64,000 bases of DNA from Candidatus Wolfebacteria bacterium GW2011_GWB1_47_1 (GTDB taxonomy: Bacteria; Patescibacteriota; Minisyncoccia; UBA6257; UBA9933). This document shows, in pieces, positions 12,250-58,719 of this stretch. Made by a program: the position numbers and the translations under genes. Each line of letters starts with the position of its first letter. The stretch's first letter is position 1. The notes below the pieces were generated by a model. That model was given only the letters and a program-made list of their open reading frames with translations, was not told the origin of the DNA and ran no database searches. The DNA is taken from the NCBI GenBank assembly GCA_001029635.1, contig CP011209.1, positions 157,352 through 221,351 on the forward strand, given 5' to 3'.

Positions 12250-12333
12250 TGTACCCCGACAGGGCTTGAACCTGCACGAGACTGCTCTCACTCGATGGTA
12301 ATCGAGCGCGTCTACCAATTCCGCCACGGGGAC
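12250..12333 (-). tRNA. tRNA-like gene, type II (Leu-type D-arm, long variable arm); anticodon arm non-canonical, so possible pseudogene or variant
   Basis: Reverse complement ...TGGCGGAATTGGTAGACGCG...GGTTCAAGCCCTG..ACCA. The anticodon region CTCGA-TTACCA-TCGAG gives a 6-nt loop, and the acceptor stem has mismatches. Confidence 0.45.
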
Positions 12334-12463: not shown

Positions 12464-12540
12464 TGGCGCGCGAGGCAGGACTCGAACCCGCGACCTCAAT
12501 CCGTGAAGGATTGCGCTCTACTCGACTGAGCTACTCGCAC
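12464..12540 (-). tRNA. tRNA with a canonical cloverleaf whose anticodon loop CTTCACG places TCA (UCA) at positions 34-36; discriminator G, CCA encoded
   Basis: Reverse complement GTGCGAG-TA-GCTC-AGTCGAGTA-GAGC-G-CAATC-CTTCACG-GATTG-AGGTC-GCGGG-TTCGAGT-CCTGC-CTCGCGC-G-CCA. Position 37 would be C, which is atypical. Confidence 0.5.
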
Positions 12541-18530: not shown

Positions 18531-18629
18531 TTTTAAAAAGGTATGCTCTAGGTGCGTGATCAATCCAATTATGTTCGCATAGTAAGAAAAATTATGTACA
18601 ATATATGAAAACACTTCGCATATAAATGA

Positions 18630-18807
18630 GTTACGCAAAATGTCGTTCGGCTTCACTCCATTTTTCGTAACGTGGAGCTTTGCGAGGGTTGGGCTTCCTC
18701 TCTTCCCTATCGGGACAAGTAAACAAGCCTCGCACCACATCGCCTAACAACCGCTTGGCGGCGTCCGCCCAAATCCCGCTCCGCGGGACTTCGCAAAGCT
18801 CCACGTT
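18630..18807. repeat. Cassette-associated repeat copy 1: hairpin module, left IR AACGTGGAGCTTTGCGAGG (18669-18687), 40-bp core in orientation A (18688-18727), right IR interrupted by a 57-bp insertion
   Basis: Shares more than 60 bp with copies 2 and 3. The core is the exact reverse complement of the core in copy 2. Confidence 0.75.
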
Positions 18808-18841
18808 ATACGCAATTCTTTAAAACCTTAGCGCCATTAAG

Positions 18842-19465: not shown

Positions 19466-19696
19466 CAAAGAATATCTGGTTCAAAATTTTCATATCAAGT
19501 ATAATAAAAAAGGAGTGTGAAAATTTCTCGACCCAAATTTTTCTTTCGCTGCTACAGAAAAACTTCAGATATTCTTAACGTTACGCAAAATGTCGTTCGG
19601 CTTCACTCCATTTTTCGTAACGTGGAGCTTTGCGAGGCTTGTTTACTTGTCCCGATAGGGAAGAGAGGAAGCCCAACCCTCGCAAAGCTCCACGTT
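19466..19696. repeat. Cassette-associated repeat copy 2 (full length): upstream module ACAAAGAATATCTGG..., hairpin module, perfect 19-bp IRs (19619-19637 and 19678-19696) flanking the 40-bp core in orientation B (19638-19677)
   Basis: AACGTGGAGCTTTGCGAGG-[CTTGTTTACTTGTCCCGATAGGGAAGAGAGGAAGCCCAAC]-CCTCGCAAAGCTCCACGTT. Confidence 0.8.
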
Positions 19697-19761
19697 AGCT
19701 GAAATAATCAAAATTTTTATCTTTATTAATAATAATTATCTGGGGCTTTTTTATTTTTTCT

Positions 19762-20317: not shown

Positions 20318-20496
20318 GATTACATCAGCTAACAAAGAATATCTGGCTCAAAAATTTTTCACTTTTACATTTTCAGATGAAAGAAAAATTTTCTCGACCC
20401 AAATTCATTTCCGCTACGCTTCAATGAACTTCAGATATTCTTAACGTTACGCAAAATGTCGTTCGGCTTCACTCCATTTTTCGTAACGTGGAGCTT
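20318..20496. repeat. Cassette-associated repeat copy 3 (truncated after the left IR)
   Basis: ACAAAGAATATCTGGCTCAAAAA...CTTCAGATATTCTTAACGTTACGCAAAATGTCGTTCGGCTTCACTCCATTTTTCGTAACGTGGAGCTTTT, then diverges. Confidence 0.7.
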
Positions 20497-20673
20497 TTTT
20501 GAAATTTTTTAGAACAAGAATGACGTCCTCCCCGCACTCCCATCCTCTACTCTTTCCACGACGGAATGGATCGTGCGGGGTTTCCTGGTAAGGTAGTAAA
20601 AAAAGGCGGCAAAATTTTGTCGTCCCGGGACTTAAAACTCTCTAAAATGATTGCGTATGTTTAGCTCGTGTGA

Positions 20674-21099: not shown

Positions 21100-21140
21100 A
21101 AAACGCACGGTCTTATGAATAAGACTGTGCGTTTTTATTT
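21100..21140. terminator. Hairpin terminator downstream of rnpA
   Basis: AAAACGCACGGTCTTATGAATAAGACTGTGCGTTTT. Confidence 0.55.
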
Positions 21141-21458
21141 CGCAAACTCAAATTCCTTTATTATTTGCTTAATATCTCCCTTAGTAAACTGTTTAGTCTC
21201 TGGATAAATAAGGATCATCACGTCTTGCCCTTCACTGTTTTGTAGATTTCGCCCCCGAATACCTTCATAAAACATTCTCTTGATTTTATTTCGCTCCGTT
21301 GCCCGCTTATCTACCTTCTTCCCCACTACAACACCAAAACGGCTATATGAAAGCCCATTTGGTACATATTTTACCGCAAAAAAAGGGCCTTTCTTTACAA
21401 AAGTAGGCCTTTTTTTGATAAATTCAGCAATATTAAGCTTGAATTTCTTTGCAAGCAT
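21135..21458 (-). CDS. rnpA: Ribonuclease P protein component
   Basis: Basic 107-aa protein; conserved RNR motif region KRATERNKIKRMFYEGIRG; sits next to rpmH. Confidence 0.8.
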   Translation of the reverse strand: MLAKKFKLNIAEFIKKRPTFVKKGPFFAVKYVPNGLSYSRFGVVVGKKVDKRATERNKIKRMFYEGIRGRNLQNSEGQDVMILIYPETKQFTKGDIKQIIKEFEFAK

Positions 21459-21465
21459 TAGATCT

Positions 21466-21600
21466 AATCAGCGAAGAACGCATTTAGTTAAGTGAAGTGC
21501 TAGGCGCGGGAAGGTTAGCGCGAAAGCCGTATTATTTATACGGCGACCAAGCTGACAGGGGCCCGCAACACCGCAATTCGCCAACTAAATGCGTTCTTTT
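21466..21600. repeat. Copy Y of a conserved roughly 85-nt structured element (core 21489-21576) enclosed by an 18-bp inverted repeat, in the rpmH-rnpA spacer
   Basis: Core GCTAGGCGCGGGAAGG...GAAAGCCGTATTATTTATACGGCGACCAAGCTGACAGGGGCCCGCAACACCGCAATTCGC matches the element at 34538-34620. Flanks GAAGAACGCATTTAGTT and AACTAAATGCGTTCTT. Confidence 0.6.
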
Positions 21601-21746
21601 TAAGAAGCTTTTTTGACCGTAAGCTGCTTCCGTCCCTTTCGGCGACGTGCCAAAAGTACGCGTCGTCCACCCGGGGTCGAAGTACGCTCCAAAAACCCGT
21701 GGGTTCGCGCTCTTTTTCGCTTGTTTGGTTGGTATGTGACTGACAT
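21600..21746 (-). CDS. rpmH: 50S ribosomal protein L34
   Basis: Translation [48 protein letters not shown]. It is not in the ORF track because it is under 60 aa. Confidence 0.85.
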
Positions 21747-22259: not shown

Positions 22260-23627
22260 ATGGAACTCGATCAACTCTGGAAATCCGCTCTTGCTGAGCT
22301 TGAAATACAAATGACCCAGCCGAACTTTTTAACCTGGTTTAAAAACAGTCGACTTATCGATCGATCCGCCGAAGGAGAACTTGTAGTATCCCTTTCAAAT
22401 AATTTTGCAAAAGAATGGGTTGAAAATAAATACCATAAATCAATTCTTGAAATTCTTATCTCTTTGGATGACTCCGTGAGGCGCGTTCGGTATACGGTTG
22501 CCATTCTCCCAACGGAACCTCAAAAACCCCTCACAGATAGCAAAAAAGAGCGTTCCGGGGCTCCTCAGCAGGCTACGTTTGATGAATTCAAAATCGATCC
22601 AGAGACAAATCTCCACCCAAAATACACGTTTAAGTCATATATAGTGGGTTCTTCAAACGAATTAGCATATGCTGCTTCCCTCGCCGTTATTAAGGATATG
22701 GGGAAAAAGTACAATCCACTGTTTATTTATGGAGGATCGGGTCTTGGAAAGACCCATTTAATGCAATCTATTGGTAATCAAATTCGCCAGACCCATGGAA
22801 ATACCACAAAAGTAAAATATATTCCTTCCGAAAAATTCGTAAATGACATTGTATTTTCCATTAAAAACAAAAGAATGGAGGATATGAAGCGCATCTACCG
22901 CTCGGTAGATGTACTCATTATTGACGATATCCAATTTATCGCCGGAAAGGCAGCGAGTGAAGAAGAATTTTTTCACACGTTTAATGCCCTGTATGATAAT
23001 GATAAACAAATAATACTTTCATCCGATCGCCCTCCTCATGAAACTGCCATACTTGAAGAGCGCCTTCGTTCCCGCTTTAGTAGCGGAATGATCGTGGATA
23101 TTTCTTATCCGGACTATGAAATGCGCCTTGCTATCATTAAAAAGAAGCTTGAGCAGGAAAATATATCCATTCCTGATTCGGTTACCGAATTTATTGCCGA
23201 AAAGATGCAGCGTAATATTCGTGAGATAGAAGGAGTCTTGAAAAAGATCATGTTTTATCAGGATGTGAAAGGAGTTGAGGTGACTCGGGGAATAGTGGAG
23301 GAAATCATTGATAAAACGACGAAGCATTCCTTTAAAAATGTAACACCAAATCAGGTTATGCAAGTCGTTGCCAATTTCTTCGAACTTGCCGAAAAGGACC
23401 TAACCGACCAAGGAAGAAGAAAGGAGGTTGTTGAGCCGCGCCAGATCGCAATGTATTTAATGAAAGATCTCCTGGGGATGTCCTACTCGGATATCGGGTA
23501 TAAGATGGGGAAAAGAGATCATTCAACCGTTATGCACGCATGTGATAAAATCTCGACATTACTCACAACCGACCAGAAGTTGGGTAATAAACTTACTTCG
23601 ATTAAGGAAGTTATCAACAGTAAATAA
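22260..23627 (+). CDS. dnaA: Chromosomal replication initiator DnaA
   Basis: AAA+ Walker A GGSGLGKTHLMQ, Walker B LIIDDIQF, sensor and C-terminal DNA-binding domain (DIGYKMGKRDHSTVMHA). Confidence 0.92.
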   Translation: MELDQLWKSALAELEIQMTQPNFLTWFKNSRLIDRSAEGELVVSLSNNFAKEWVENKYHKSILEILISLDDSVRRVRYTVAILPTEPQKPLTDSKKERSGAPQQATFDEFKIDPETNLHPKYTFKSYIVGSSNELAYAASLAVIKDMGKKYNPLFIYGGSGLGKTHLMQSIGNQIRQTHGNTTKVKYIPSEKFVNDIVFSIKNKRMEDMKRIYRSVDVLIIDDIQFIAGKAASEEEFFHTFNALYDNDKQIILSSDRPPHETAILEERLRSRFSSGMIVDISYPDYEMRLAIIKKKLEQENISIPDSVTEFIAEKMQRNIREIEGVLKKIMFYQDVKGVEVTRGIVEEIIDKTTKHSFKNVTPNQVMQVVANFFELAEKDLTDQGRRKEVVEPRQIAMYLMKDLLGMSYSDIGYKMGKRDHSTVMHACDKISTLLTTDQKLGNKLTSIKEVINSK

Positions 23628-34122: not shown

Positions 34123-34196
34123 GGGTGATTAGCTCAGTTGGTTAGAGCACCTCGTTTACACCGAGGGGGTCGGGGGTTCGAATCCCTCATCACCCA
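34123..34196 (+). tRNA. tRNA-Val (TAC)
   Basis: GGGTGATTAGCTCAGTTGGTTAGAGCACCTCGTTTACACCGAGGGGGTCGGGGGTTCGAATCCCTCATCACCCA, canonical. Confidence 0.9.
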
Positions 34197-34506
34197 CCCT
34201 TTTCGAAGCATTGCTTCGATTTGGAATAGCCACCGAAATGGAAAATACGTACGGAGCTGATACGGACGTACTAATCATCACGGAGCGGCAAACTACATCG
34301 GGAAACACACGACGACACGAGTAAAAAGAAGTGTCGGAGCAGGTACTGGTGTAGCTGTTTGAAACCCTTTTGGATCATTGCATTCATGGCGAAAGAATCA
34401 CTCCCTTGATTCGATATCATGCGCAAAAATCCGATAAAAGGGATTGTATTCGTGTGTCTAATAATAAAAACCGAATGCGTAATAAATATACGTGTTCGAA
34501 AAATAA

Positions 34507-34637
34507 AGAGAACTTAGTGATTTTAGATGAAATGCGAGGCGCGGGAACGGCTCGAGGAAGCCGTACTTACCGGTACGGCGACCGAAGAGAGGGGGACCCG
34601 CAACGAAGCAGTTCGCTAAAAACATAAGTTCTCAGAG
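34507..34637. repeat. Copy X of the conserved roughly 85-nt structured element (core 34538-34620) with a flanking imperfect inverted repeat, in the long leader upstream of rpsL
   Basis: Core GCGAGGCGCGGGAACGG...GAAGCCGTACTTACCGGTACGGCGACCGAAGAGAGGGGGACCCGCAACGAAGCAGTTCGC; flanks AGAGAACTTAG and CATAAGTTCTC. Confidence 0.6.
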
Positions 34638-39624: not shown

Positions 39625-42600
39625 TTATTGCCCCGCACCTCGCAAGAACTTGAAGGTGTCTTCGAAATTCTTAAAGATGACGTCGAAAATCGACTCACCC
39701 TTTTGTGGCGTGATGACTGTACGAGGACCGAATGTCGTCTTGTTGCCTGCCGAGTCGGTTGATTCGATCTTCATCTGATAGATCGTACCTGGCTTGAGGC
39801 TCGAAAGAATGATCGCATGATTATTGGTATATGTATCGAGCTGTTCTTCCTTGTTGGCAAATCCGTCCTTTACCTGTCCTGCTCCTTCCTGATAATAGAT
39901 GACGGAATTGGACAATTCATCCGTTACCCAAGTAATAACGGTCTGTACTCGGTCGTTTCGACCGGGGACAAGCGCTCCGTCTACTTTAAAGTTGGAGATC
40001 TTTGGAGCGGTGATATCGCGTACCGTCGAAACGGTCAGGGGAGCTCCGCCTTCAATCAAGTTGCCCTTTTCGTTGTATCCGAATACCGTTACTTCATATG
40101 CAGTTGCCGGGACAAGCTTATCGATGAGAATCTCGTGCTCCTTAACAAGCGTATTTTCTATCTTGCGCTGAATTTCTCCGGTTCTTACATTTTTGTATTC
40201 CACAATGGTTGATGCGGTATCTTCCGTGCTCCAAACAACATTGAAGGAAGTATTCTTTATGTTTATTACGCGTGCCGAGATTCTTGAGGCCTTTGTTGTG
40301 AAGGTTGTGTCTTGGCTACTACCCACAACTTGAGGTAGGGAGAACGATCTCACCATAAAGTGATATTTGGTATTTGGTTCCAATCCTACCAGGGTAAGCT
40401 GATGATCCGTTTCCTTTGATTCTGTGCGGGATATTTCTCCTACATACGGGTTTGGCCGCGTTGCGTCAAACTCGCTTTCTTTTGCGTAGAGAATGACTGC
40501 ATACGATTTGATGTTCGTCTTCCAGCTTATATCAGCCGTATTTTCGGTTATGGCCGTAATGCGGGGTTCTTCCACAAACGGCGGCAATACTCCCGGCAAA
40601 ATAGATTCGATGGTTTGCTCAACCTCTTCCTCATACTGTTTTACATCCTCCACAGTTCTGAGGCCAGGGCTTGCCTGGGTGAGATATTTAGTTTTGAAGG
40701 TCTGGCTTTCGGAGATCATCCGATTTGCCGACTTGTCGATCGCCTCGGCTTCAAACTTGTATTCCGTACCCATTTTCAACCCCGTTATTGTGAATTTATG
40801 ATGAGTCGTCCAATCGCGATGGCTGATGGTATCGGTAAAGGCATCTTTCCCATAATGCAAGAATCCAAGTGAAGGTTCGCTTGCATCAAACTCGATTATG
40901 GCTCCAAACGCAGTTGTGGTCGCTATTGTTATGTTCGAGATCGTCGGCGCGGTAGTGTCTTTTACCTCTGGCGGTGTAGACTGGCTCGCTCCTCCACCGA
41001 TAGTTACCACGCGCACTTCACCCTCCTGGGTTGTGGCAAACGTTGTAGACGTTGATACGGCCGCATTTCCCGATCCATCTCGGGATTCCACTGAAAACGC
41101 ATACGTCGTATTTGGAGTCAATGCGGTTCCCGCGTCCAATCCAATATTGACTGAGTGATACACGGAGAGGGTGGCGTCTGCCGGCGTATAGGTATTCATC
41201 GTAGAAGAACTTGCCCCATACCGCACTTGTGACGTTGCGGGCTCGCTTGTCTTCCAAAATACACTCACGCTGTTTGGTGTGCGGATTGGCGTAGAAACCT
41301 GAGAGATCGCCGGAGGGAAGGTATCGTTGGTCGTGCGGAAGGTGCGGTATGTACCACCGTTATCATCCATTGTGGTATTGCCCTGTACATCGGTCGATTG
41401 TACCGAGTAATAGTAGGTAGTCCCTGCGGCGAGGCCGGTGACGGGAACGGTATGGATAAAGTCTTCGGTTGTTGATGCATCTCCCACGGGGAGTGACGTT
41501 CCCCATACTTCCTTATATCCATTAAAGGACTGACTTACCGCATAGCGCACTAAGGTATCAGCAGTCTTATTGGTATGCCAGCTGACGAGCGCATTGGCAT
41601 CGGTAATGCCTTCGCCCGTGATCTGGGTGATATAGGGACCCGCAGTTGTATGGAAGGTATAACCCGCTCCGCTATTGTCATCGATTCCTTCATTAAGATT
41701 GGAATCCTTTGATGCAACCTTGAACACATAATCACTATCCGGGACAAGGGCCGAGAGTGTTACGCTGTGTGTTTGTCCGGCTCCCTGTTCTGTTGCGGTC
41801 ATGCCATAGGCGGCATCGCCTACTTTATTGTAGGACACGATTCCATCCGCGTCTTCATCGGTCTCCCACGTAATAGTCGCCCAGGTTGAGTGGACTACCG
41901 GTGCGGAAGGAGCGACGGTAAAGAGTGGTGCGTTAGAGTCGGAGCTACCGCGGCCGTCCGGGACATCGGTGAGTACTGGCGAGTACGCAGAAGTATCGTC
42001 GTCCGTATCGACGACAGCGATGCGATATGTGTACTCGGTCGATGATGCAACTTCGTTGTCGAGATAATAGGCCTGGAGCAATGTGGTCTGCGTGGCAAGT
42101 AAATCAAAGGTTATGCCATCAGCTGCCCGTTCCACGAGATAGTGCTTGAAGGTAGAGTTGGCAACATTGCCATGTACCGGCCATGAAATAAATTCCTTAT
42201 AGAGTTGGAGATCCGCCTTTGAGATATCAGTGAAGTCGATTCTGCTTGGCGCGCTCGGCGCAACGATAGATTGCTGACTTATGTTGCCCGAGCCATCGCG
42301 CACCTGTACGTAAATGGTCGGATAGCTCGAAGTCGCCACAGTCCATGTAAGCGATGATGCAGCTGTTGCGTTGGCATCAATCCACTGACCATCGGTCGCA
42401 TTGGTTGCCGACGATGACGAGGCGGTGAAGTTGGCAAATTCAGAGAAACGATATTGGAACGCCCCCTCGTCAGAGAATGCGAAGGTTAGTGCATTGGTGC
42501 GTGCGTCAAAGCGTGCCGTGGTGATCGTCGGGTCGGTAGTATCAATGACGAACGCGGAAGTTGTCGCGGTTGCGGTGCTGAAGATTGCCTCTTGGTCGTT

Positions 42601-45600
42601 GATCGTGATCCTGATCATCGCGGTGTTGGAGTAGACGCCATCAATATCTGCCTTGGCATCCCAATAGGCGCCGAGTACTGTAGCGGTCGCGCCGATCGGC
42701 TGTAAGCCGTTGGTGCCGCTTTCGAGCACGAGAGATGGAGAGGATGTCGCAATATCGGTCCAGGTGGAGCCATTGTCGGTTGAATACGCGAAGGACGGCT
42801 CGATGCGTCCCGGGATAGTTACGCCTTCCGCGGTATCCTCATCAAGAATGGTGTAGTTGACATGAACCTGTCCGTAGCGGGCATCGGTGGAGTCCGATAT
42901 GACACTTGCTGACTGCGATGAAAACGCCGGTCGGATATTGTACCCCGCACTGTTTGTATCGGTTGCTTCGTCTATATTGCCAAAGACATCGCGGATACGC
43001 ACGGTGATTGTTTCGCTGCGCGAGTCCACATGCCAAGGGAAGGTTGTTGTCGCAAGGGTAACACCATCGGATGCGAAGGCATCCCCCCAACTGTCTTCGG
43101 TTGCGACTCCTCCAACATAACCGTACCAGGTGGTACCGCCATTGCGGGAGAACTGCGCCTGAATCTGCTCATTGATCGGATGACCCGATAGTGAGACGAG
43201 GCGTAAGGTGACGTCTTTGGAGTCGGTGACTACAATTTCACTGGAATCGTTGATCAGTAAGGAACCGCCTGATAAGGTCGGTGGGGTGATGTCGAGAATA
43301 AACGAAGTCGATGTCGCGATACCGAGGTTATTGAGTTGCTCGGCATCATTTGCCGTTACGCGGATTCGAACATCGTCTTGTGAGACGTTATTAAGCTCCG
43401 TTTTTGCGTCCCAGTGTGCGGTGAACGATGCTGGGGTTGCCGATACCGTAGTGGACGCAATGTCCCCCGTTACGAGACTGGCCGGAATCCAAGTCGATTC
43501 CCCATCAAGTGAATAGGCAAAGGATGGTGTCGCTGCTATGTTATCAAGATCGGCGATCGTGTATTCGATGGTAACATCGGCATTGTTTGGATCAGGTGTC
43601 TGTGCCGCAGTAACCGTTACGATCGGTGCGCTGTTATATGACACGGTATTGGAATCAGTTGCGGGGCCATGGCCAAGAGTATCCATGATACGCACAGAGA
43701 TAGTTTCGGTCTTTTCGCCTAAGACAATATCCCACGCAACGGTTGACGTTGATGAGAACGACGTGCCATAGGCATCCTGTGCACCGATGGTGCCGTCGGC
43801 ATTTGCCGCATACCAAGTTACGCCGTCATGGGAAAGCTGTGCAATAATCAGCTCGCCTACCGGGGATCCGGTGACATCGGCCAACGTCACGGTGACGTTG
43901 GCGGAGGCTGCTTGTACGGTAGCGGAAGATCCGTTGATTACCACTGATGATTCGGTGAGTGCCGGCGCGGAAGTATCAAGATATAATGACGCATCAATCG
44001 ATGCGGAGAGGTTTCCCGCGATATCAATGTAGCGAACAGAGACGGTTTTGGTTGCGTCTCCCGCCGTAAGGGCATATGCCTTCGTGGTTGCGTATGATTC
44101 CGCGGAGGTCCAGGTGGTGCCATCTCCGGAGAATTGCATCTGAGTCACCGAATTATTGTCGGTTGCAGATAGATGCAAGACGACGTCGGTCGAGGTAGCA
44201 TAGGCGGATCCATCATTGATAACAAGGGTTCCGGTTGGTTCCTGGGTATCAAGCGTAATCGTATCGCTCGCGGTTTCGGAAATAAGGCCGGATCCATCGA
44301 TGACCTGCGCGGAAACACCTTGTATTCCATCGACACTCGGAATGGTCACGGATGATGTTGTCGCAAACGCAGACCAAGTAGACCAGGTAGCTCCTTCATC
44401 GGTTGAGGTCCGCATCTGGCTAGCCCCTGACCCTGCATCGGTTGCGGTGACCGTGAGGGTAACGGTTATGCTATTGGCAAACGCATTGTTGTCGTTAATA
44501 ACTAGTGAGATGACAGGCGCAATGGTGTCGATAAGAATATTGGCATTAGCCGATACGGACATATTATTACGTGCGTCACGGAACTGTGAGTAGACAGTCT
44601 TTAATCCCTCTCCCGTCGCAAGGGTATATGCTTTGGATGTCGCATATGATTCCCATGCAGACCAGTCGGTGTCGTTGTCGGAAAAGCGCATTGAGGCAAC
44701 TGATGATCCGGTATCAGTCGCAGAGAGATTTAATGTAACTGCCGTGGATGATGCATAGCTTGCGCCGCTATTAATGGCAATGGTTCCTGATGGAGCAATG
44801 GTATCGATCGCGAAATTTGCACTCGTTAATGATGCGGTATTACTGAATGTATCTGCATCGTCGGCGGTAAACCGAATGGCAAACGCGGAGCCACTCACGG
44901 CGCCTGCATACTGCGTCGCATCCCAGTAGGCGGAATATGAGGTATCAGTACCTGTCCCCACGGCAATCGGGGAACCAAATGCAACGCCAGCCGCATCGGT
45001 GAGTTGATTGATAGGAAGCGTTGCCCATAGCGAACCATCATACCATTCAAATGACGGTATCACCTGGTTTGTTGTGGAGTCGGTATCTCGGAGCGCGAAG
45101 TCGATCTTTATCTTGCCGAAGTTTGCGTCGGTAGAAGAAGCAAGTTGTGCGGCAGTAATAGACGCAATGGTTGGCGGTACGTTGTATGTATAGGTAGGGG
45201 TTACATCGTCAACCCTCGGCGTATATATTCCGTCAGAGGTGAGATCTACCTTGTATTGGAAATATTGATCTCCCGATCCATCCTGCATGGACGCGGGAAT
45301 TGAGGAAGAACCGCAGGTTACGGTGTCTGTAATCTTTCCACAGGCATTGGTGAAGGCTGTCCATATGCCAAGCGTATCGGTAGATGCGCCGGTACGGAGC
45401 GACACGGTAACGGAGGTATTAGCCGGAAGAGTCGTATCTTCTTTCCAGCTCAATCCGGTCATTATATTGGTCGCACTCGTGGAATTGTATAGGGAGGAAA
45501 GAAGCGAGCTTGTGGAAGCGTATCGTGCATATGTAATGGAAACGTCATCCAGTGACGGTGACTGCGAAGTATTTGCCGTCGAGAGCGTTGCCTTGTACTG

Positions 45601-48600
45601 AATGTATCGATGGCCCACCACTGCACCCAACGTGCTCAAGGAGATGCCGGTGTTAGTGGAAGCAGTGCCAAAGGATGCCGCATCAGAAAGATCAGCGGCA
45701 TTGCTGGTGCGCACCTGCATCGAAACAGTCTGTCCGCCCGAATTTGTCCACGAGAGATTGCCCCAGTTTGCCACTGCACTGCCCGCGTCCAAGACGCCGG
45801 AGGTGAAGGAGCCGGATGGATGGTAGCTGCCCGGGAAGGTAACAGACCCGGTCACGCTGTCGAGTGAGGGGGTAACTGCAGTATTTCCCCCGTTTGCCAA
45901 GGTAGCCTGATACCAGAGGTAGCGGCTATTAGATGGAGCGCAAGTCGTGTTAAGGGTGATTGACCCATTGGCGGAAACAGTCCCGGAATCGCAGGTGCCC
46001 GAAGCAAAGCTTGGCGCGCTCGCCGAGGTAGTTCCTTTAACCTTGATGCTGAAAGTTGTTCCCGAAGGATACTGTCCTGCGTACGCAAACGAGTTCCAGG
46101 TGTATGCGGCTGCGGAACCGGCGTCAAAGTAGGAAGTGTAGGTCCCGGAAGTGGCATACGATACGAGTATTCCAGGTACAAAAACAGTGTCTACAGTAGC
46201 AGTTGGCTGGATTGGAGCAGTAACACTGCCGGTCGTCGCCCCGTTGCCGACTTGGCCGGCGCCGTCATCTCCCCAGCACCATAAGCTTCCGTCGATGTAG
46301 GAGCAGGTGTGATTGTACCCCGTAGCAACCTGCGTCACGCCACTTGCAACGACCGTGGCAGGGGAATGTATGGCACCGGTAGTAGCCCCGTTGCCGATTT
46401 GGCCTAGACTGTCATCTCCCCAGCACTGCAGACTCCCGTCCGTCTTAACGGCGCAGGTGTGATTTTTCCCCGTAGCAACCTTCGTCACGCCACTTGCAAC
46501 GACCGTGGCAGGGGAAGTTATATTACCGGTGGTTCCCCCGTTACCGACTTGTCCCCAGCCATCATATCCCCAGCACTGCAGACTCCCTGATACGACGGCG
46601 CAGGTGTGATTGTCCCCCGCAGCAACCTGCGTCACACCGCTTGCGATAGCCGTGACAGGGGCAATCATGTCGTAGTTGGTCGCCGGCCCGTTGCCGACCT
46701 GGCCGGCGCCGTCACTCCCCCAACACTGCAGACTCCCGTCAGTCTTGACGGCACAGGTGTGTTTGGTCCCCGCGGCAACCTGTGCCACTCCACTTGCGAT
46801 GACCGTGACAGGGGAAGTTATGGCGCCGGTGGTCCCTCCGTTGCCAAGCTGCCCGTAGTTGTCATACCCCCAACACTGCAGACTCCCCGATACGACGGCG
46901 CAGGTGTGTTCGTACCCCGCAGCAACCTGCGTCACGCCACTTGCAATGACCTGGAACGGAGAAACGACATTGCCAGTCGTCGCCCCGTTGCCGACTTGGC
47001 CGTAGCTGTCATATCCCCAACATTGCAGACTCCCCGATACGACGGCGCAGGTGTGTGCGTACCCCGTAGCAACCTGCGTCACGCCACTCGCGATGACCTG
47101 GAACGGAGAAACGACATTGCCAGTCGTCGCCCCGTTGCCGATTTGGCCGTAGGTGTCGGATCCCCAGCACCACAGACTTCCGTCCGAGCTCTTAATGGCG
47201 CAGGTGTGAGTGCCTCCCCCGGCAACCTGGGATCCTAAAAGGGGTCCAGGCCCTTGGATGGATGGCTGGACTGGAGAAGTAATGTTACCGGTGGTTGCTC
47301 CGTTGCCGACTTGGCCTAGACTGTCATCCCCCCAACACCACAAACTCCCGTCCGTCTTGAAGGCGCAGGTGTAGTAGGTTCCCCCGGCAACCTGACTCAC
47401 TCCGGAAATTCCCGCGACTTGCACCGGCGAGAGCTGATCTTGCTCTAGGGCGTTGCCTAATTGGCCATATAGAATACTAGAATACGCATCGCTATAGCCA
47501 TTAGATCCCCAACACCACAAACTCCCGTCTGTCTTGACGGCGCAGGTGTGGTAATATCCCGTAGTTACCTGACTCACTCCGCTGGCAATGGTCTGGACTG
47601 GAGAGGTGACACTACCACTAGTTGTTCCGTTGCCGATCTGTCCGTTGCTGTTATATCCCCAGCACCACAGACTCCCGTCTGTCTTGACGGCGCAGGTGTG
47701 TAAGAAGCCCGCAGTTACCTGGCTCACTCCGCTGGCAATAATAGGGGCTGGAAGCATGACATAACCAGTGGTTGGTCCGTTACCAATCTGCCCGGCAGAG
47801 TCATTTCCCCAGCACCACAGACTCCCGTCTGTCTTGACGGCGCAGGTGTGGTAGACTCCCGTAGTTACCTGACTCACTCCGCTGGCAATGATCTGGTTCG
47901 GAGACGTGGTAAGGCCCCCGATCGATCCGATGCCGACCTGTCCATCGCTGTTATATCCCCAACACCACAAACTCCCGTCTGTCTTGACGGCGCAGGTTTG
48001 ACTCTTTCCTGCGGAAACCTGGACCACTCCGGAAATTCCTGCGACTTGCACTGGAGAGGGCTGATCTGACGGTATAGTATTGCCGAGTTGGCCAGTTAGA
48101 TCATAGCCATATCCTGACTCATAACCGTTAATTCCCCAGCACCACAGACTCCCGTCCGTCTTGACGGCGCAGGTATGACTGCTCCCCGCAGAAACCTGCG
48201 TCACTCCGCTGGCAATGATCTGGACTGGAGATGTAATAGCTCCTCCGATCACTCCGTTGCCAATCTGTCCATGATCGTTATATCCCCAGCACCACAGACT
48301 CCCGTCCGTCTTAACGGCGCAGGTGTGGTAATCCCCTACGGAAATTTGTGAAGACGTATCACGTAACGTTACGCTCGAATTAGAGCCGCTTACCCCGTTT
48401 AGGTTTGTGTCCGCATTTGCACCATATGCCCACCCTCCTTGCTGAGAGGGAGTTGCGACGGTGGATGTGTCATCGGTCGTTGTAATGCTTCCGGTCACGG
48501 ATTGCGTTGTGAGTGTAATCGAAGTTCCTGTCCCGCTTCCGGTAAGCGTGGTCGTTGCGGTGGTATACGCGCCATACGCAAACCCGCTTGCGGTTGTAGT

Positions 48601-48864
48601 TGCATCGCTTGTCTGGGTTATGGTCGTCGTCGCAAGCGGAAGGGTTAGCGCAGTCGAGGTCGCCAAGGTTGCCGAATTAAACTGTGTCCATCCCGTGCGG
48701 TTTGCCGATTCTGTTGCGATAGTGGCGGTTGCCCCGCCCGTCCACGCGTTTTGTGAAAAGCTCGCCGTAGTAGCCGCCTGCACAAAGTCTCCTTGTCCGA
48801 CTACAACGGATAGCAACGTAACCGCAACGGTTGCGACGGTAAGGGCTGATTTGAATATCTTCAT
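39625..48864 (-). CDS. Giant secreted surface protein (about 3080 aa from the MKIFKSALTV start): signal peptide, Ser/Thr-rich region, about 15 RCC1-like beta-propeller repeats, then multiple FN3/Ig-like domains
   Basis: Signal peptide MKIFKSALTVATVAVTLLSVVVGQGDFVQA. The motif HTCAVKTDGSLWCWGYNxxGQxGNG repeats about 15 times (RCC1/ATS1-type blades); FN3-like segments (TWATITWETDEDADGIVSYN, KHYLVERAADG...YTYRIAVVD). The internal track ORFs on both strands are artefacts. Confidence 0.85.
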   Translation of the reverse strand: MKIFKSALTVATVAVTLLSVVVGQGDFVQAATTASFSQNAWTGGATATIATESANRTGWTQFNSATLATSTALTLPLATTTITQTSDATTTASGFAYGAYTTATTTLTGSGTGTSITLTTQSVTGSITTTDDTSTVATPSQQGGWAYGANADTNLNGVSGSNSSVTLRDTSSQISVGDYHTCAVKTDGSLWCWGYNDHGQIGNGVIGGAITSPVQIIASGVTQVSAGSSHTCAVKTDGSLWCWGINGYESGYGYDLTGQLGNTIPSDQPSPVQVAGISGVVQVSAGKSQTCAVKTDGSLWCWGYNSDGQVGIGSIGGLTTSPNQIIASGVSQVTTGVYHTCAVKTDGSLWCWGNDSAGQIGNGPTTGYVMLPAPIIASGVSQVTAGFLHTCAVKTDGSLWCWGYNSNGQIGNGTTSGSVTSPVQTIASGVSQVTTGYYHTCAVKTDGSLWCWGSNGYSDAYSSILYGQLGNALEQDQLSPVQVAGISGVSQVAGGTYYTCAFKTDGSLWCWGDDSLGQVGNGATTGNITSPVQPSIQGPGPLLGSQVAGGGTHTCAIKSSDGSLWCWGSDTYGQIGNGATTGNVVSPFQVIASGVTQVATGYAHTCAVVSGSLQCWGYDSYGQVGNGATTGNVVSPFQVIASGVTQVAAGYEHTCAVVSGSLQCWGYDNYGQLGNGGTTGAITSPVTVIASGVAQVAAGTKHTCAVKTDGSLQCWGSDGAGQVGNGPATNYDMIAPVTAIASGVTQVAAGDNHTCAVVSGSLQCWGYDGWGQVGNGGTTGNITSPATVVASGVTKVATGKNHTCAVKTDGSLQCWGDDSLGQIGNGATTGAIHSPATVVASGVTQVATGYNHTCSYIDGSLWCWGDDGAGQVGNGATTGSVTAPIQPTATVDTVFVPGILVSYATSGTYTSYFDAGSAAAYTWNSFAYAGQYPSGTTFSIKVKGTTSASAPSFASGTCDSGTVSANGSITLNTTCAPSNSRYLWYQATLANGGNTAVTPSLDSVTGSVTFPGSYHPSGSFTSGVLDAGSAVANWGNLSWTNSGGQTVSMQVRTSNAADLSDAASFGTASTNTGISLSTLGAVVGHRYIQYKATLSTANTSQSPSLDDVSITYARYASTSSLLSSLYNSTSATNIMTGLSWKEDTTLPANTSVTVSLRTGASTDTLGIWTAFTNACGKITDTVTCGSSSIPASMQDGSGDQYFQYKVDLTSDGIYTPRVDDVTPTYTYNVPPTIASITAAQLASSTDANFGKIKIDFALRDTDSTTNQVIPSFEWYDGSLWATLPINQLTDAAGVAFGSPIAVGTGTDTSYSAYWDATQYAGAVSGSAFAIRFTADDADTFSNTASLTSANFAIDTIAPSGTIAINSGASYASSTAVTLNLSATDTGSSVASMRFSDNDTDWSAWESYATSKAYTLATGEGLKTVYSQFRDARNNMSVSANANILIDTIAPVISLVINDNNAFANSITVTLTVTATDAGSGASQMRTSTDEGATWSTWSAFATTSSVTIPSVDGIQGVSAQVIDGSGLISETASDTITLDTQEPTGTLVINDGSAYATSTDVVLHLSATDNNSVTQMQFSGDGTTWTSAESYATTKAYALTAGDATKTVSVRYIDIAGNLSASIDASLYLDTSAPALTESSVVINGSSATVQAASANVTVTLADVTGSPVGELIIAQLSHDGVTWYAANADGTIGAQDAYGTSFSSTSTVAWDIVLGEKTETISVRIMDTLGHGPATDSNTVSYNSAPIVTVTAAQTPDPNNADVTIEYTIADLDNIAATPSFAYSLDGESTWIPASLVTGDIASTTVSATPASFTAHWDAKTELNNVSQDDVRIRVTANDAEQLNNLGIATSTSFILDITPPTLSGGSLLINDSSEIVVTDSKDVTLRLVSLSGHPINEQIQAQFSRNGGTTWYGYVGGVATEDSWGDAFASDGVTLATTTFPWHVDSRSETITVRIRDVFGNIDEATDTNSAGYNIRPAFSSQSASVISDSTDARYGQVHVNYTILDEDTAEGVTIPGRIEPSFAYSTDNGSTWTDIATSSPSLVLESGTNGLQPIGATATVLGAYWDAKADIDGVYSNTAMIRITINDQEAIFSTATATTSAFVIDTTDPTITTARFDARTNALTFAFSDEGAFQYRFSEFANFTASSSSATNATDGQWIDANATAASSLTWTVATSSYPTIYVQVRDGSGNISQQSIVAPSAPSRIDFTDISKADLQLYKEFISWPVHGNVANSTFKHYLVERAADGITFDLLATQTTLLQAYYLDNEVASSTEYTYRIAVVDTDDDTSAYSPVLTDVPDGRGSSDSNAPLFTVAPSAPVVHSTWATITWETDEDADGIVSYNKVGDAAYGMTATEQGAGQTHSVTLSALVPDSDYVFKVASKDSNLNEGIDDNSGAGYTFHTTAGPYITQITGEGITDANALVSWHTNKTADTLVRYAVSQSFNGYKEVWGTSLPVGDASTTEDFIHTVPVTGLAAGTTYYYSVQSTDVQGNTTMDDNGGTYRTFRTTNDTFPPAISQVSTPIRTPNSVSVFWKTSEPATSQVRYGASSSTMNTYTPADATLSVYHSVNIGLDAGTALTPNTTYAFSVESRDGSGNAAVSTSTTFATTQEGEVRVVTIGGGASQSTPPEVKDTTAPTISNITIATTTAFGAIIEFDASEPSLGFLHYGKDAFTDTISHRDWTTHHKFTITGLKMGTEYKFEAEAIDKSANRMISESQTFKTKYLTQASPGLRTVEDVKQYEEEVEQTIESILPGVLPPFVEEPRITAITENTADISWKTNIKSYAVILYAKESEFDATRPNPYVGEISRTESKETDHQLTLVGLEPNTKYHFMVRSFSLPQVVGSSQDTTFTTKASRISARVINIKNTSFNVVWSTEDTASTIVEYKNVRTGEIQRKIENTLVKEHEILIDKLVPATAYEVTVFGYNEKGNLIEGGAPLTVSTVRDITAPKISNFKVDGALVPGRNDRVQTVITWVTDELSNSVIYYQEGAGQVKDGFANKEEQLDTYTNNHAIILSSLKPGTIYQMKIESTDSAGNKTTFGPRTVITPQKGESIFDVIFKNFEDTFKFLRGAGQ

Positions 48865-49075
48865 TCTATTGTAGCGTTTAGAGAATTGCATTGTATGTAT
48901 AAGTGTGTGTTTGTTTGAATAGGTTCTTCGTGTGGTATCACTTCGTAGTGGGGCTGGCTGTATATAAATCCCTTGGGGTGACTCCGGGGGTCGACTTCCA
49001 CCGGGGTCCCGATATCGTTTTTTAAAATGCAAAAATTCACTTTTTTGAAAAGTGTTCCGCAGTTCACGTATACGC

Positions 49076-49146
49076 AATGACGCACGCAAGAGTGTCATGT
49101 GTGTTCGTAGAGAATTCGTTTTTCATTTCCACGCAAATAGAAATGA
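49076..49146. promoter_or_regulatory. Conserved upstream region of giant gene 1 (AATGACGCACGCAAGAGTGTCAT ... TTCCACGCAAATAGAAATGA), repeated in inverted orientation upstream of giant gene 2 (58831-58892)
   Basis: 23-bp and 20-bp blocks are identical at both loci in the same orientation relative to each gene, 200-250 bp upstream of the start codons. Confidence 0.55.
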
Positions 49147-57206: not shown

Positions 57207-57229
57207 CTATGGGGCAATTCTGCCGATAT

Positions 57230-57600
57230 TTGTTTCACGTGAAACATTTAGGAGACAAGGAGGTGGAAAAATGGTTAATATTTGTTTCACGTGAAACAAA
57301 AGAACCATAAAAAGAGGGAATTAGGTGCGGAGATTTGAGAAAGTGTTTCACGTGAAACAAAAGATATAAAAAAAAGGGGGCGAGATAGCTAAAAATGTTT
57401 CACGTGAAACAAAGTGCTCTAAGGACTGTGAAACAAAAATGTTTCACAGTGAGAAAAGGGAGATAAATTGTTTCACGTGAAACAATTTATTAAAAGATAG
57501 GGGTGGAATATGAGATAAAATGTTTCACGTGAAACAAATATCGGCAATTTGCCAAATGTGAAACAAAAGTGTGAAACAATATTAAAAACTGTCAAACAAA
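57230..57600. repeat. Tandem array of six perfect 16-bp parS consensus palindromes TGTTTCACGTGAAACA (57230, 57282, 57343, 57395, 57468, 57520), one everted variant (57428-57447), and three half-sites (57556, 57568, 57589)
   Basis: Each copy is identical to the ParB/Spo0J binding-site consensus TGTTNCACGTGAAACA; spacing is roughly 50-75 bp; located between the YraN gene and the recombinase gene. Confidence 0.75.
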
Positions 57601-57810
57601 ATATGTCAACTGGTGATAAAGCGATGAAGATGAGTTGTATCCCCTCCGGCGCCCGCTTCTTGCGGGCGGGCGCCGGAAAAATAGCAGAAAATGCGAGGAG
57701 GAAATAGAGCCTTCCACTTAGAAATTGTCATTAGTAATTAAAAATTTTAAATTACAAATTAAAAATTACCCCATATGTCCTGTCGTAAAATATTTGCTAT
57801 ACTATCTGTA

Positions 57811-58719
57811 ATGGATATTAATATCTTACTAAAGGAATATTTGGATTACCTCGAGATCGAGAAGAACAGATCAAAAAAGACGGGAGAGAATTATGGAAGG
57901 TATCTGCAGAAATTTATCGATACCGAAGGTATTAGGACTGAGGAGGATATAACGATAGGGCGAGTAAGAGACTTTCGTCTTCACTTGGCGCGTTCCTCGA
58001 ACGGGAGAGGCGATCAATATAACAAGTCAACACAAAGCTACTATATAATAGCATTGAGAAACTTCCTGAAATATTTGGCAAAAAACGATCATAAGGTTCT
58101 TTCTCCTGATAAGATAGAATTGCCGAAGGTTCCGATGCGACAGATTGAAGTAATTGAGTATGACGAGCTGGAGCGGTTATTAGGCGCAGTAAACGGGGGC
58201 GACACAAAAGCACTTCGCGACAGGGCGATATTGGAGGTACTCTTTTCAACCGGGCTACGTATCTCAGAGTTATGTAGCTTGAACCGATATATGGATTTTG
58301 ACCGTGGTGAAGTGACAGTAAGAGGGAAGGGAAATAAATTACGGGTAGTGTTCTTGGACACGAAGGCCGTGGCGGCGATCAAACAATATCTCGATAGGCG
58401 GGGTGACGCCGAGGAGGCAATGTTTGTAAGTTACACCAAGGCGGCAAGCCCGAAGGTGATTGGACGGATCATCCCACGGGCGGTGCAGCGCTTAGTTGAT
58501 CATTACTCGCGCAAGGCAGGAATAGCAAAGCACGTGCATCCACACATGCTACGTCATTCTTTTGCTACCGATCTTTTGATCAATGGAGCCGACCTGCGGT
58601 CTGTCCAAGAGATGCTCGGACACGCCAATATTGCCACAACACAGATCTACACCCATATTACAAATAAGGAACTTAAAGAGGTTCATCAGGCGTTCCATGG
58701 AAAAAGAAGAAAACAGTAA
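57811..58719 (+). CDS. Tyrosine site-specific recombinase (XerC/XerD-like)
   Basis: Catalytic R...HxxR...Y pattern: RDRAILEVLFSTGLRISEL, HPHMLRHSFATDLL, IATTQIYTHI. Confidence 0.85.
   Translation: MDINILLKEYLDYLEIEKNRSKKTGENYGRYLQKFIDTEGIRTEEDITIGRVRDFRLHLARSSNGRGDQYNKSTQSYYIIALRNFLKYLAKNDHKVLSPDKIELPKVPMRQIEVIEYDELERLLGAVNGGDTKALRDRAILEVLFSTGLRISELCSLNRYMDFDRGEVTVRGKGNKLRVVFLDTKAVAAIKQYLDRRGDAEEAMFVSYTKAASPKVIGRIIPRAVQRLVDHYSRKAGIAKHVHPHMLRHSFATDLLINGADLRSVQEMLGHANIATTQIYTHITNKELKEVHQAFHGKRRKQ

Follow-up and report, generated by a model that had tools for sequence, protein, structure and literature searches.

The intergenic palindromes known as ERIC, REP and Correia elements are co-transcribed and change the stability of mRNA; ERICs can also affect its cleavage (PMC3184786). 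Comparison of these and a few other structured elements with one found twice in a 64-kb stretch of Wolfebacteria DNA (hereafter the window, meaning the whole stretch that was analysed) shows parallels as well as differences. The element and ERIC are both imperfect palindromes of ~125 nt, present in few to many copies per genome, located in transcribed spacers in either orientation and able to form long hairpins in the transcript. The multi-copy, intergenic and imperfectly palindromic character by which ERICs and MITEs are recognised is thus present here, but conserved terminal inverted repeats are not: the outer stems of two copies (B and X2, described below) differ though their cores are 82% identical. 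There is no sequence relation to ERIC. Whereas ERIC has conserved terminal inverted repeats and TA flanks, our element has copy-specific termini and no duplication, its conservation resides in asymmetric purine-rich loops, and its hosts are Wolfebacteria (CPR).

Like REP, BIME and REPIN sequences, the element is an extragenic hairpin palindrome located between operon genes, with no target-site duplication and with long persistence; a REP is able to stabilise the upstream mRNA. However, REP sequences are 20-40 nt long with a 5' GTAG and conserved arms, whereas the core of the element measures 91 nt, comprises five helices and lacks GTAG at its foot, and its loops are conserved as well as its stems. 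A Pfam scan of 20 window ORFs revealed no RAYT (Y1/HUH) gene. Correia (NEMIS) and other MITE-type elements are similar in length (~100-150 nt), in being co-transcribed, in having long duplexes suited to RNase III and in presence/absence polymorphism between close strains. In contrast to the element, MITEs have conserved terminal repeats, target-site duplications and usually near-identical copies. A classical MITE was rejected because the termini are not conserved and there is no target-site duplication.

Integron attC sites (for example, the VCRs of Vibrio) are also imperfect palindromes, of 60-140 nt, that act as folded single strands with unpaired bases and form homogeneous families in some species; the position of two copies, X2 and X1, on either side of one small gene is an attC-like trait. 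However, the element lacks RYYYAAC/GTTRRRY core sites, forms no array, has no intI next to it and sits between housekeeping genes. The sole tyrosine recombinase in the window, an XerC/D-like protein encoded at 57775-58719, is 23 kb away. Finally, small ribozymes (twister, twister-sister, hammerhead and hairpin) are likewise found in scattered contexts and, as here, have a closing helix that varies, loop nucleotides that are conserved and a structure that is permuted between subtypes, but the element has no covariance-model match, no junction and no pseudoknot. Twister-sister itself, which ACCCGCAA may resemble, was rejected, because covariance models give the likeness no support.

The genomes of CPR bacteria (Patescibacteria) are tiny and contain hardly any non-coding DNA, and to our knowledge almost nothing has been learned about the RNA biology and mobile elements of these bacteria. 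A search of the literature on structured RNAs and repeats in CPR bacteria found nothing on this element. With Rfam 15, tRNAs alone reach the gathering threshold in the window, and even at E<=10 nothing relevant was returned for copies A and B, for a type-2 copy or for the hairpin termed "type 3"; the sequence-only reading was right that no known riboswitch or leader is involved. A phage or viral origin was also rejected: pattern scans of viral contigs gave random matches in GC-rich phages or none, and blastn against phages gave chance 40-nt matches. The element belongs to a new, narrowly distributed family of structured palindromic elements in Wolfebacteria, without match to any known family.

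Two copies in the window and their common fold

The two structured copies reported by the sequence-only reading are real and lie where it placed them, although each is larger than it supposed. Copy A spans 21473-21598 and copy B 34508-34633, both on the forward strand, and in each a 91-nt conserved core lies inside a copy-specific outer stem (P0), together forming an unbranched rod of ~125 nt. The pattern GGCGCGGGAA..GCCGTA..TACGGCGACC has exactly two matches in the 64 kb (21503-21548 and 34538-34583, both +) and none in 100 shuffles, and looser three-block searches of the window found no third copy. The covariance model delimits the cores at 21492-21582 and 34527-34617 (E ~1e-22); both are of the type termed type 1, with match scores of 96 bits (E ~1e-23) for A and 92 bits (E ~1e-21) for B. 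The flanking inverted repeats noticed earlier are present at 21474-21489/21583-21598 in A and at 34508-34526/34616-34633 in B, and the central hairpin is GCCGTAC/GTACGGC in B and GCCGTA/TACGGC in A, as described. The shared blocks also hold. The boundaries do not, since conservation starts 5' of the position given and P1 is TGAA.TGC/GCA.TTCG, not GCGA/TCGC.

In copy A, the 5' arm of P0, GAAGAACGCATTTAGTT (21473-21489, +), has a copy-specific sequence and forms a 16-bp perfect inverted repeat with 21583-21598 (16/16 positions of 21474-21489 are complementary). The 3' arm, AACTAAATGCGTTCTT (21583-21598, +), ends 1 nt short of the stop codon of rpmH on the opposite strand. The core consists of helices P1a, P1b, P2 and P3, a 2-bp GG/CC helix and the P4 hairpin, with purine-rich internal loops between them. 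In copy B, the 5' arm GAGAACTTAGTGATTTTAG (34508-34526, +) pairs with 34616-34633 in the minimum-free-energy fold, and the 3' arm CTAAAAACATAAGTTCTC (34616-34633, +) ends 8 nt 5' of the rpsL ATG (34642). The fold of copy B (+) places P1a at 34528-31/34612-15, P1b at 34533-35/34608-10, P2 at 34541-45/34597-601, P3 at 34551-53/34587-89, the GG/CC helix at 34556-57/34582-83 and P4 at 34560-66/34573-79. Folded whole, A and B each give a single unbranched hairpin with dG of -57.3 and -59.5 kcal/mol and z of -8.2 and -7.3 against shuffles, respectively. Copy B is found unchanged (100% identity) in four other assemblies of the species, as is copy A in other assemblies. Immediately 5' of copy B lies a small "empty" hairpin, CGAATGCGTA-ATAAATA-TACGTGTTCG (34472-34498, +), which by manual sequence comparison appears homologous to the outer stem around a type-2 core in L083.

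The same rod is predicted for all copies of the family (z of -3 to -11), which share one architecture. From the outside inwards, this consists of the copy-specific P0; P1a, UGAA/UUCG with a U.G pair; one mismatch; P1b, UGC/GCA; a loop GAGGC/AAC-NNN; P2, which is GCGGG/CCCGC in type 1; a loop AA-N/AGGGG; a variable P3; a loop holding the 2-bp GG/CC helix flanked by GA/AA and GA/GA; and the P4 hairpin with a variable loop. P0 is 9-19 bp long, and its sequence is wholly different between copies yet pairs in every copy. Types 1 and 2 share the outer module AUGAARUGCGAGGCGC...GCAACRAAGCARUUCGC and the overall length, while the inner two thirds differ: the GG/CC mini-helix and its flanking loop strands change sides between the types, and the mini-helix is reversed to CC/GG in every type-2 copy. 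The purine-rich internal loops are conserved and the terminal loop is not. Kink-turn, loop E and sarcin-ricin motifs were considered by comparing the loops by eye with the consensus motifs, and none fits all copies.

The helices are supported by covariation. In the 13-copy alignment (A6), 92.4% of the cells are standard pairs and 19 of the 27 pairs change on both sides (62 cells), counts that do not represent independent events because the 13 sequences are related. These measures were reached by none of 500 shuffles, and pairing falls to ~30% when the 3' partners are slid; the alignment was fitted to the model, yet single-sequence folds independently predict the same helices. Compensatory changes are well illustrated by L073, in which P2 is GUGGG/CCCAC and P4 is GGUGUGC/GUACACC.

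The strand on which the element acts is less clear. In 9 of 10 copies, the strand with the purine-rich loops gives the better fold of the two, and the U.G pair of P1a is present in 11 of 13. Assignment of the strand from wobble pairs in general was rejected, with only the P1a pair being informative: besides it, there are 7 G.U pairs and 8 A.C mismatches, and copies at antisense sites are the richer in A.C (6 vs 2). The strand assignment, and with it the choice of RNA over single-stranded DNA, is thus suggestive.

No conserved ORF was found by manual translation of the copies: the frame from the ATG is open for 30 codons in B and W but is stopped in A at codon 4 (TAG) and in X1 at codon 10 (TGA). 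Indels between copies shift the frame, and the substitutions in helices are compensatory. In B (34528-34618, +) and W (L039 2154-2244, -) the ATG is at the start of the core and the 30-codon frame ends exactly at its 3' edge. Because the frame is broken in other copies, we take this frame as incidental. A small coding ORF was accordingly rejected, the frame being broken in A and X1 and shifting between copies.

Genomic sites and turnover among relatives

To find further copies, public genomes and metagenomes were scanned with sequence patterns, and two covariance models were then applied. The search, which the sequence-only reading had proposed, yielded 13 distinct copies (8 of type 1 and 5 of type 2) in at least five Wolfebacteria genomes or contigs and one contig without assignment. 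Divergent family members will have been missed, because the scans took exact patterns only; the metagenome collection is also incomplete for the window genome, because its scan did not return the window's own copies. Besides A and B, the type-1 copies are X1 and X2 (L057 516-606 and 1066-1156), 460 nt apart on either side of a 131-aa gene and antisense to it; W (L039 2155-2245), sense, between DksA/TraR-type and ComM/YifB-like genes; Z (L053 343-435), sense, between mraZ and rsmH, with the rsmH ATG within the 3' strand of P1; and positional orthologs of A in L073 and L088. The type-2 copies are in L071, L083 and L090, with two more in L091.

The window genome (0.98 Mb) holds at least four copies, A, B, X1 and X2, given that the proteins beside X1 and X2 come from the same four assemblies as the window S12. 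Its paralogs are 63-82% identical. W, L071 and L090 belong to one organism (genome 2, the ACD_81/GW2011_GWE2_44_13 population). Since genome 2 carries type 2 at rpmH-rnpA and rpsL and type 1 at dksA-comM, the subtypes coexist in one genome. The possibility that the subtype is fixed per lineage by co-evolution with a partner was therefore rejected, genome 2 holding both type 1 (L039) and type 2 (L071, L090); its nearby copies may have been homogenised. Other comparisons gave little. An L34 look-up returned matches from the same species only, the sequence of L089 ends at the spacer and so adds little, and no similarity was found that would link L071 with L083 or L073 with L081 via a neighbouring gene.

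All copies lie in short spacers between co-directional genes, and the rods take up almost the entire spacer. The genes around different copies have nothing in common. Orientation relative to the genes is fixed per site and varies among sites, four of which are sense and three antisense. The antisense sites are rpmH-rnpA (four lineages), X1 and X2; the sense sites include tRNA-rpsL (three lineages), dksA-comM and mraZ-rsmH. Antisense copies start 0-4 nt past the upstream stop codon, which is that of rpmH in the window, L073, L071 and L088 and that of the preceding genes for X1 and X2. The 3' end of sense copies lies 7-10 nt before the downstream ATG, as at rpsL (window, L083, L090) and comM (L039), or the ATG is included.

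In the window, copy A occupies the 141-nt spacer between rpmH (21600-21746, -) and rnpA (21135-21458, -) and is antisense to both, with dnaA starting beyond rpmH at 22260 (+). The T-run 3' of copy A is the complement of the terminal Lys codons and the stop codon of rpmH. Copy B is in the sense orientation in the 5' region of rpsL, 3' of the tRNA at 34123-34196. The earlier observation that A and B share one DNA orientation is correct (both +, with rpmH and rnpA on - and rpsL on +), and it follows, as was argued then, that the element cannot be a sense leader at both loci. A consensus scan in the orientation of the element found no consistent promoter- or terminator-like signals flanking the copies, a result to be read in the light that CPR promoter rules may differ.

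The occupancy of these sites differs among relatives. First, the site 5' of rpsL holds type 1 in the window and type 2 in L083, L090 and L091, while L081, whose S12 is 97% identical, has 45 nt from the conserved upstream block to the ATG and no element. The outer stem at this site is homologous in the window and L090 despite the different type of inner core. Second, L091 has one more complete type-2 copy, enclosed by an outer stem of its own and located within the conserved tRNA-rpsL block; its close relative L090 (S12 identical to that of L091) has no extra copy at that position and reads straight through. Manual reading of the junctions found no target-site duplication, neither between the filled L091 and empty L090 sites nor between the window and L090 on one side and L081 on the other. 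Third, the rpmH-rnpA spacer holds type 1 in the window, L073 and L088, type 2 in L071 and an unrelated long hairpin in L069 and L087. A long hairpin is thus kept at rpmH-rnpA even without the core element. The data establish that the family is gained, lost and replaced among close relatives and is tolerated only in operon spacers.

Insertion solely into the loops of pre-existing hairpins was also considered. The idea is favoured by the empty hairpin at 34472-34498, the L083 counterpart of which surrounds a core; it was nevertheless rejected, since the extra copy of L091 brought its own outer stem and there is no hairpin at the site in L090.

Two other structures were observed at the same sites. 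The hairpin of L069 (9900-9970, -) and L087 (9900-9975, -) combines a near-perfect stem of 19 bp with a tip of the form AAGGAGG...CCUCCU; a second, smaller hairpin that resembles a terminator lies before it and overlaps the stop codon of rpmH. Between the tRNA and copy B, a block of ~270 nt is conserved (window 34197-34470, +; L081 4052-4310; L083 4137-4400; L090 9640-9868). Of the 66 pairs predicted in its consensus fold, 25 show compensatory changes, and no Rfam family matches it at E<=10; the block may represent another structured RNA, unrelated to the element, or a leader of the str operon. In L091, the extra copy is inserted in a linker of this block.

Possible nature of the element

The explanation that we rank first, tentatively, is an evolutionarily mobile, structured palindromic element of the ERIC/REP kind that acts as a single-stranded hairpin. 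The element is an autonomous folding unit, in which P0 (9-19 bp, copy-specific) clamps a 91-nt core of five stacked helices with purine-rich internal loops between them and rejoins the flanking host sequences. Such elements would spread to, and be lost from, short co-directional spacers in either orientation, with long persistence at some sites, and this mobility would be the cause of the turnover described above. The active form would be a single-stranded hairpin, most likely RNA within operon transcripts, and its conserved loops may be read by a putative trans-acting factor mediating propagation or processing. By analogy with ERIC, REP and Correia elements, an intercistronic hairpin could also affect host mRNAs by punctuating operon transcripts, as a processing or stability signal or as a barrier beside start and stop codons. 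The age of the copies and the constraint on their structure indicate that selection acts on a single-stranded fold for a function, be it selfish or of use to the host.

The sequence-only reading had offered either an independent sRNA gene or a mobile structured element. The second option is supported by differences in presence and subtype at the same site among relatives, but several observations do not fit a mobile hairpin easily. Unlike in classical MITEs, the P0 termini differ between copies and target sites are not duplicated, and no transposase was found among the 20 ORFs of the 64-kb window that were scanned. The copies within a genome are old (63-82% identity), not near-identical as in an active repeat family. 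The long retention at rpmH-rnpA with compensatory changes suggests host selection and not selfish spread, while a pure host function at the mRNA level leaves it unexplained why loops of the same strand are conserved at both sense and antisense sites. Moreover, recombination between strains could also give rise to the insertion/deletion differences.

At least four copies of a ~125-nt element are kept in a 0.98-Mb genome, within core operons (rpmH-rnpA, the str operon leader, mraZ-rsmH). Being kept in core operons and turning over among relatives, the element is either a rare successful selfish element in streamlined genomes or a new operon-punctuating RNA module. The covariance model provides a handle for a survey of Patescibacteria and for a search of protein partners by co-occurrence.

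Another possibility, which we regard as unlikely, is a new CPR-specific class of autonomous functional RNA, a "plug-in" rod serving as a protein-binding module or ribozyme that can be inserted in operon spacers and even in structured RNAs. The outer stem would then insulate the host RNA, and the outer module shared by the two types would be the active part.

It is improbable, in our estimate, that the copies are sibling small RNAs of ~90-125 nt, each being a gene in its own right or cut out of a longer transcript at the outer stem. Their conserved purine-rich loops would have as target either a protein or a pyrimidine-rich sequence, for instance the anti-Shine-Dalgarno region. Sequence and structure of the same strand are kept whatever the direction of the neighbouring gene, its fold surpasses that of the complement in 9 of 10 copies, and the P1a U.G is conserved in 11 of 13; several diverged paralogs per genome, as found here, are also usual for sibling sRNAs, and the long P0+P1 duplex resembles a stem processed by RNase III, as far as its predicted form may suggest. 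However, an independent sRNA gene is not supported, because the rods nearly fill the operon spacers, leaving no room for signals of their own, and no consistent promoter- or terminator-like signals were seen; a hand-picked TTGAAT-N18-TCTAAT 5' of A fails the scan criteria, and an sRNA gene with its own signals seems unlikely on these grounds. A copy at an antisense site would moreover be represented in the operon transcript by the complement of the conserved strand. The terminal loop, in which a seed would usually lie, varies between copies, G.U (7) and A.C (8) are equally frequent beyond the one conserved U.G, and presence or absence differs among close relatives.

Slightly less probable still is a cis-acting regulatory RNA module that would be bound by an RNA-binding protein or nuclease of global action, or would sense a ligand, and would control translation or processing of the next gene, with the antisense copies being inactive passengers or having a different working mode. 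The ends of sense copies 7-10 nt before the rpsL and comM ATGs, together with the rsmH ATG contained in P1 of the L053 element, would suit such a module, and conserved internal loops between covarying helices are seen in riboswitches and ribosomal-protein leaders. On the other hand, the downstream genes (rpsL, comM-like, rsmH) are mutually unrelated, about half of the sites are antisense and equally conserved, and no expression platform is evident. The element also appears dispensable 5' of rpsL, since it is absent there from L081, the relative with 97% identical S12. A riboswitch or ribosomal-protein leader proper was rejected on the antisense copies at rpmH-rnpA, X1 and X2, the unrelated downstream genes and the absence from L081.

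Quite improbable is a site acting at the DNA level, that is, a hairpin or cruciform in single-stranded DNA recognised by a recombinase or HUH-type transposase, as with REP/RAYT, the ends of IS200/IS605 or attC. Independence of transcription in orientation, lack of target-site duplication, an imperfect palindrome with conserved unpaired bases, the cassette-like arrangement of X2 and X1 in the same orientation around one small gene and the rough balance of G.U and A.C outside the one conserved pair are all consistent with it. However, the cumulative GC-skew minimum lies at ~20-24 kb in the window, and because A and B have the same DNA orientation on opposite sides of it (~22 kb), they are on different replication-template strands, which argues against a function tied to the replication strand. 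Motifs of the GTAG/REP or R''/R' attC core kind are missing, and the termini vary between copies; the scanned ORFs of the window include no Y1/RAYT or IntI-type gene, the sole recombinase, XerC/D-like, being 23 kb off; and rpmH, rnpA and rpsL are housekeeping genes, not cassettes.

A new class of self-cleaving ribozyme is the least probable reading; its fit with multiple copies in either orientation and scattered, unrelated contexts, with conserved nucleotides confined to internal loops between covarying helices, with a closing stem of variable length and with subtypes in which the GG/CC mini-helix and flanking internal-loop strands swap sides (type 1 vs type 2) is opposed by the lack of a match to any Rfam ribozyme model at E<=10, by an unbranched rod with no conserved terminal loop and no evident pseudoknot, and by the lack of covariance-model support for a twister-sister likeness of ACCCGCAA.

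Other features of the window

Several further features were observed in the window. A three-copy direct repeat, CTTCAGATATTCTTAACGTTACGCAAAATGTCGTTCGGCTTCACTCCATTTTTCGTAACGTGGAGCTTT, lies at ~18628-18808, 19562-19697 and 20428-20500. Two of the copies run on into segments flanked by the inverted repeat TAACGTGGAGCTTTGCGAGG/CCTCGCAAAGCTCCACGTTA, and an inner segment of 44 nt looks inverted from one copy to the other, 19640-19683 being the reverse complement of 18686-18729. A borderline tRNA match at 12254-12331 (-), with 29.4 bits against a gathering threshold of 29, adjoins a normal tRNA (12467-12540) and is bracketed by a 21-nt inverted repeat (12236-12256/12328-12348); it could be an unusual or interrupted tRNA gene. 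An ORF at 39625-49098 (-) encodes 3157 aa and takes up ~15% of the window. Finally, the perfect palindrome TTTGTTTCACGTGAAACAAA is present in at least six copies at 57229-57565, spaced by ~50-60 nt, just 5' of the gene at 57775-58719 for the XerC/D-like tyrosine recombinase (Pfam Phage_integrase, E 1.5e-44), and this array may be an operator or a recombination-site array.
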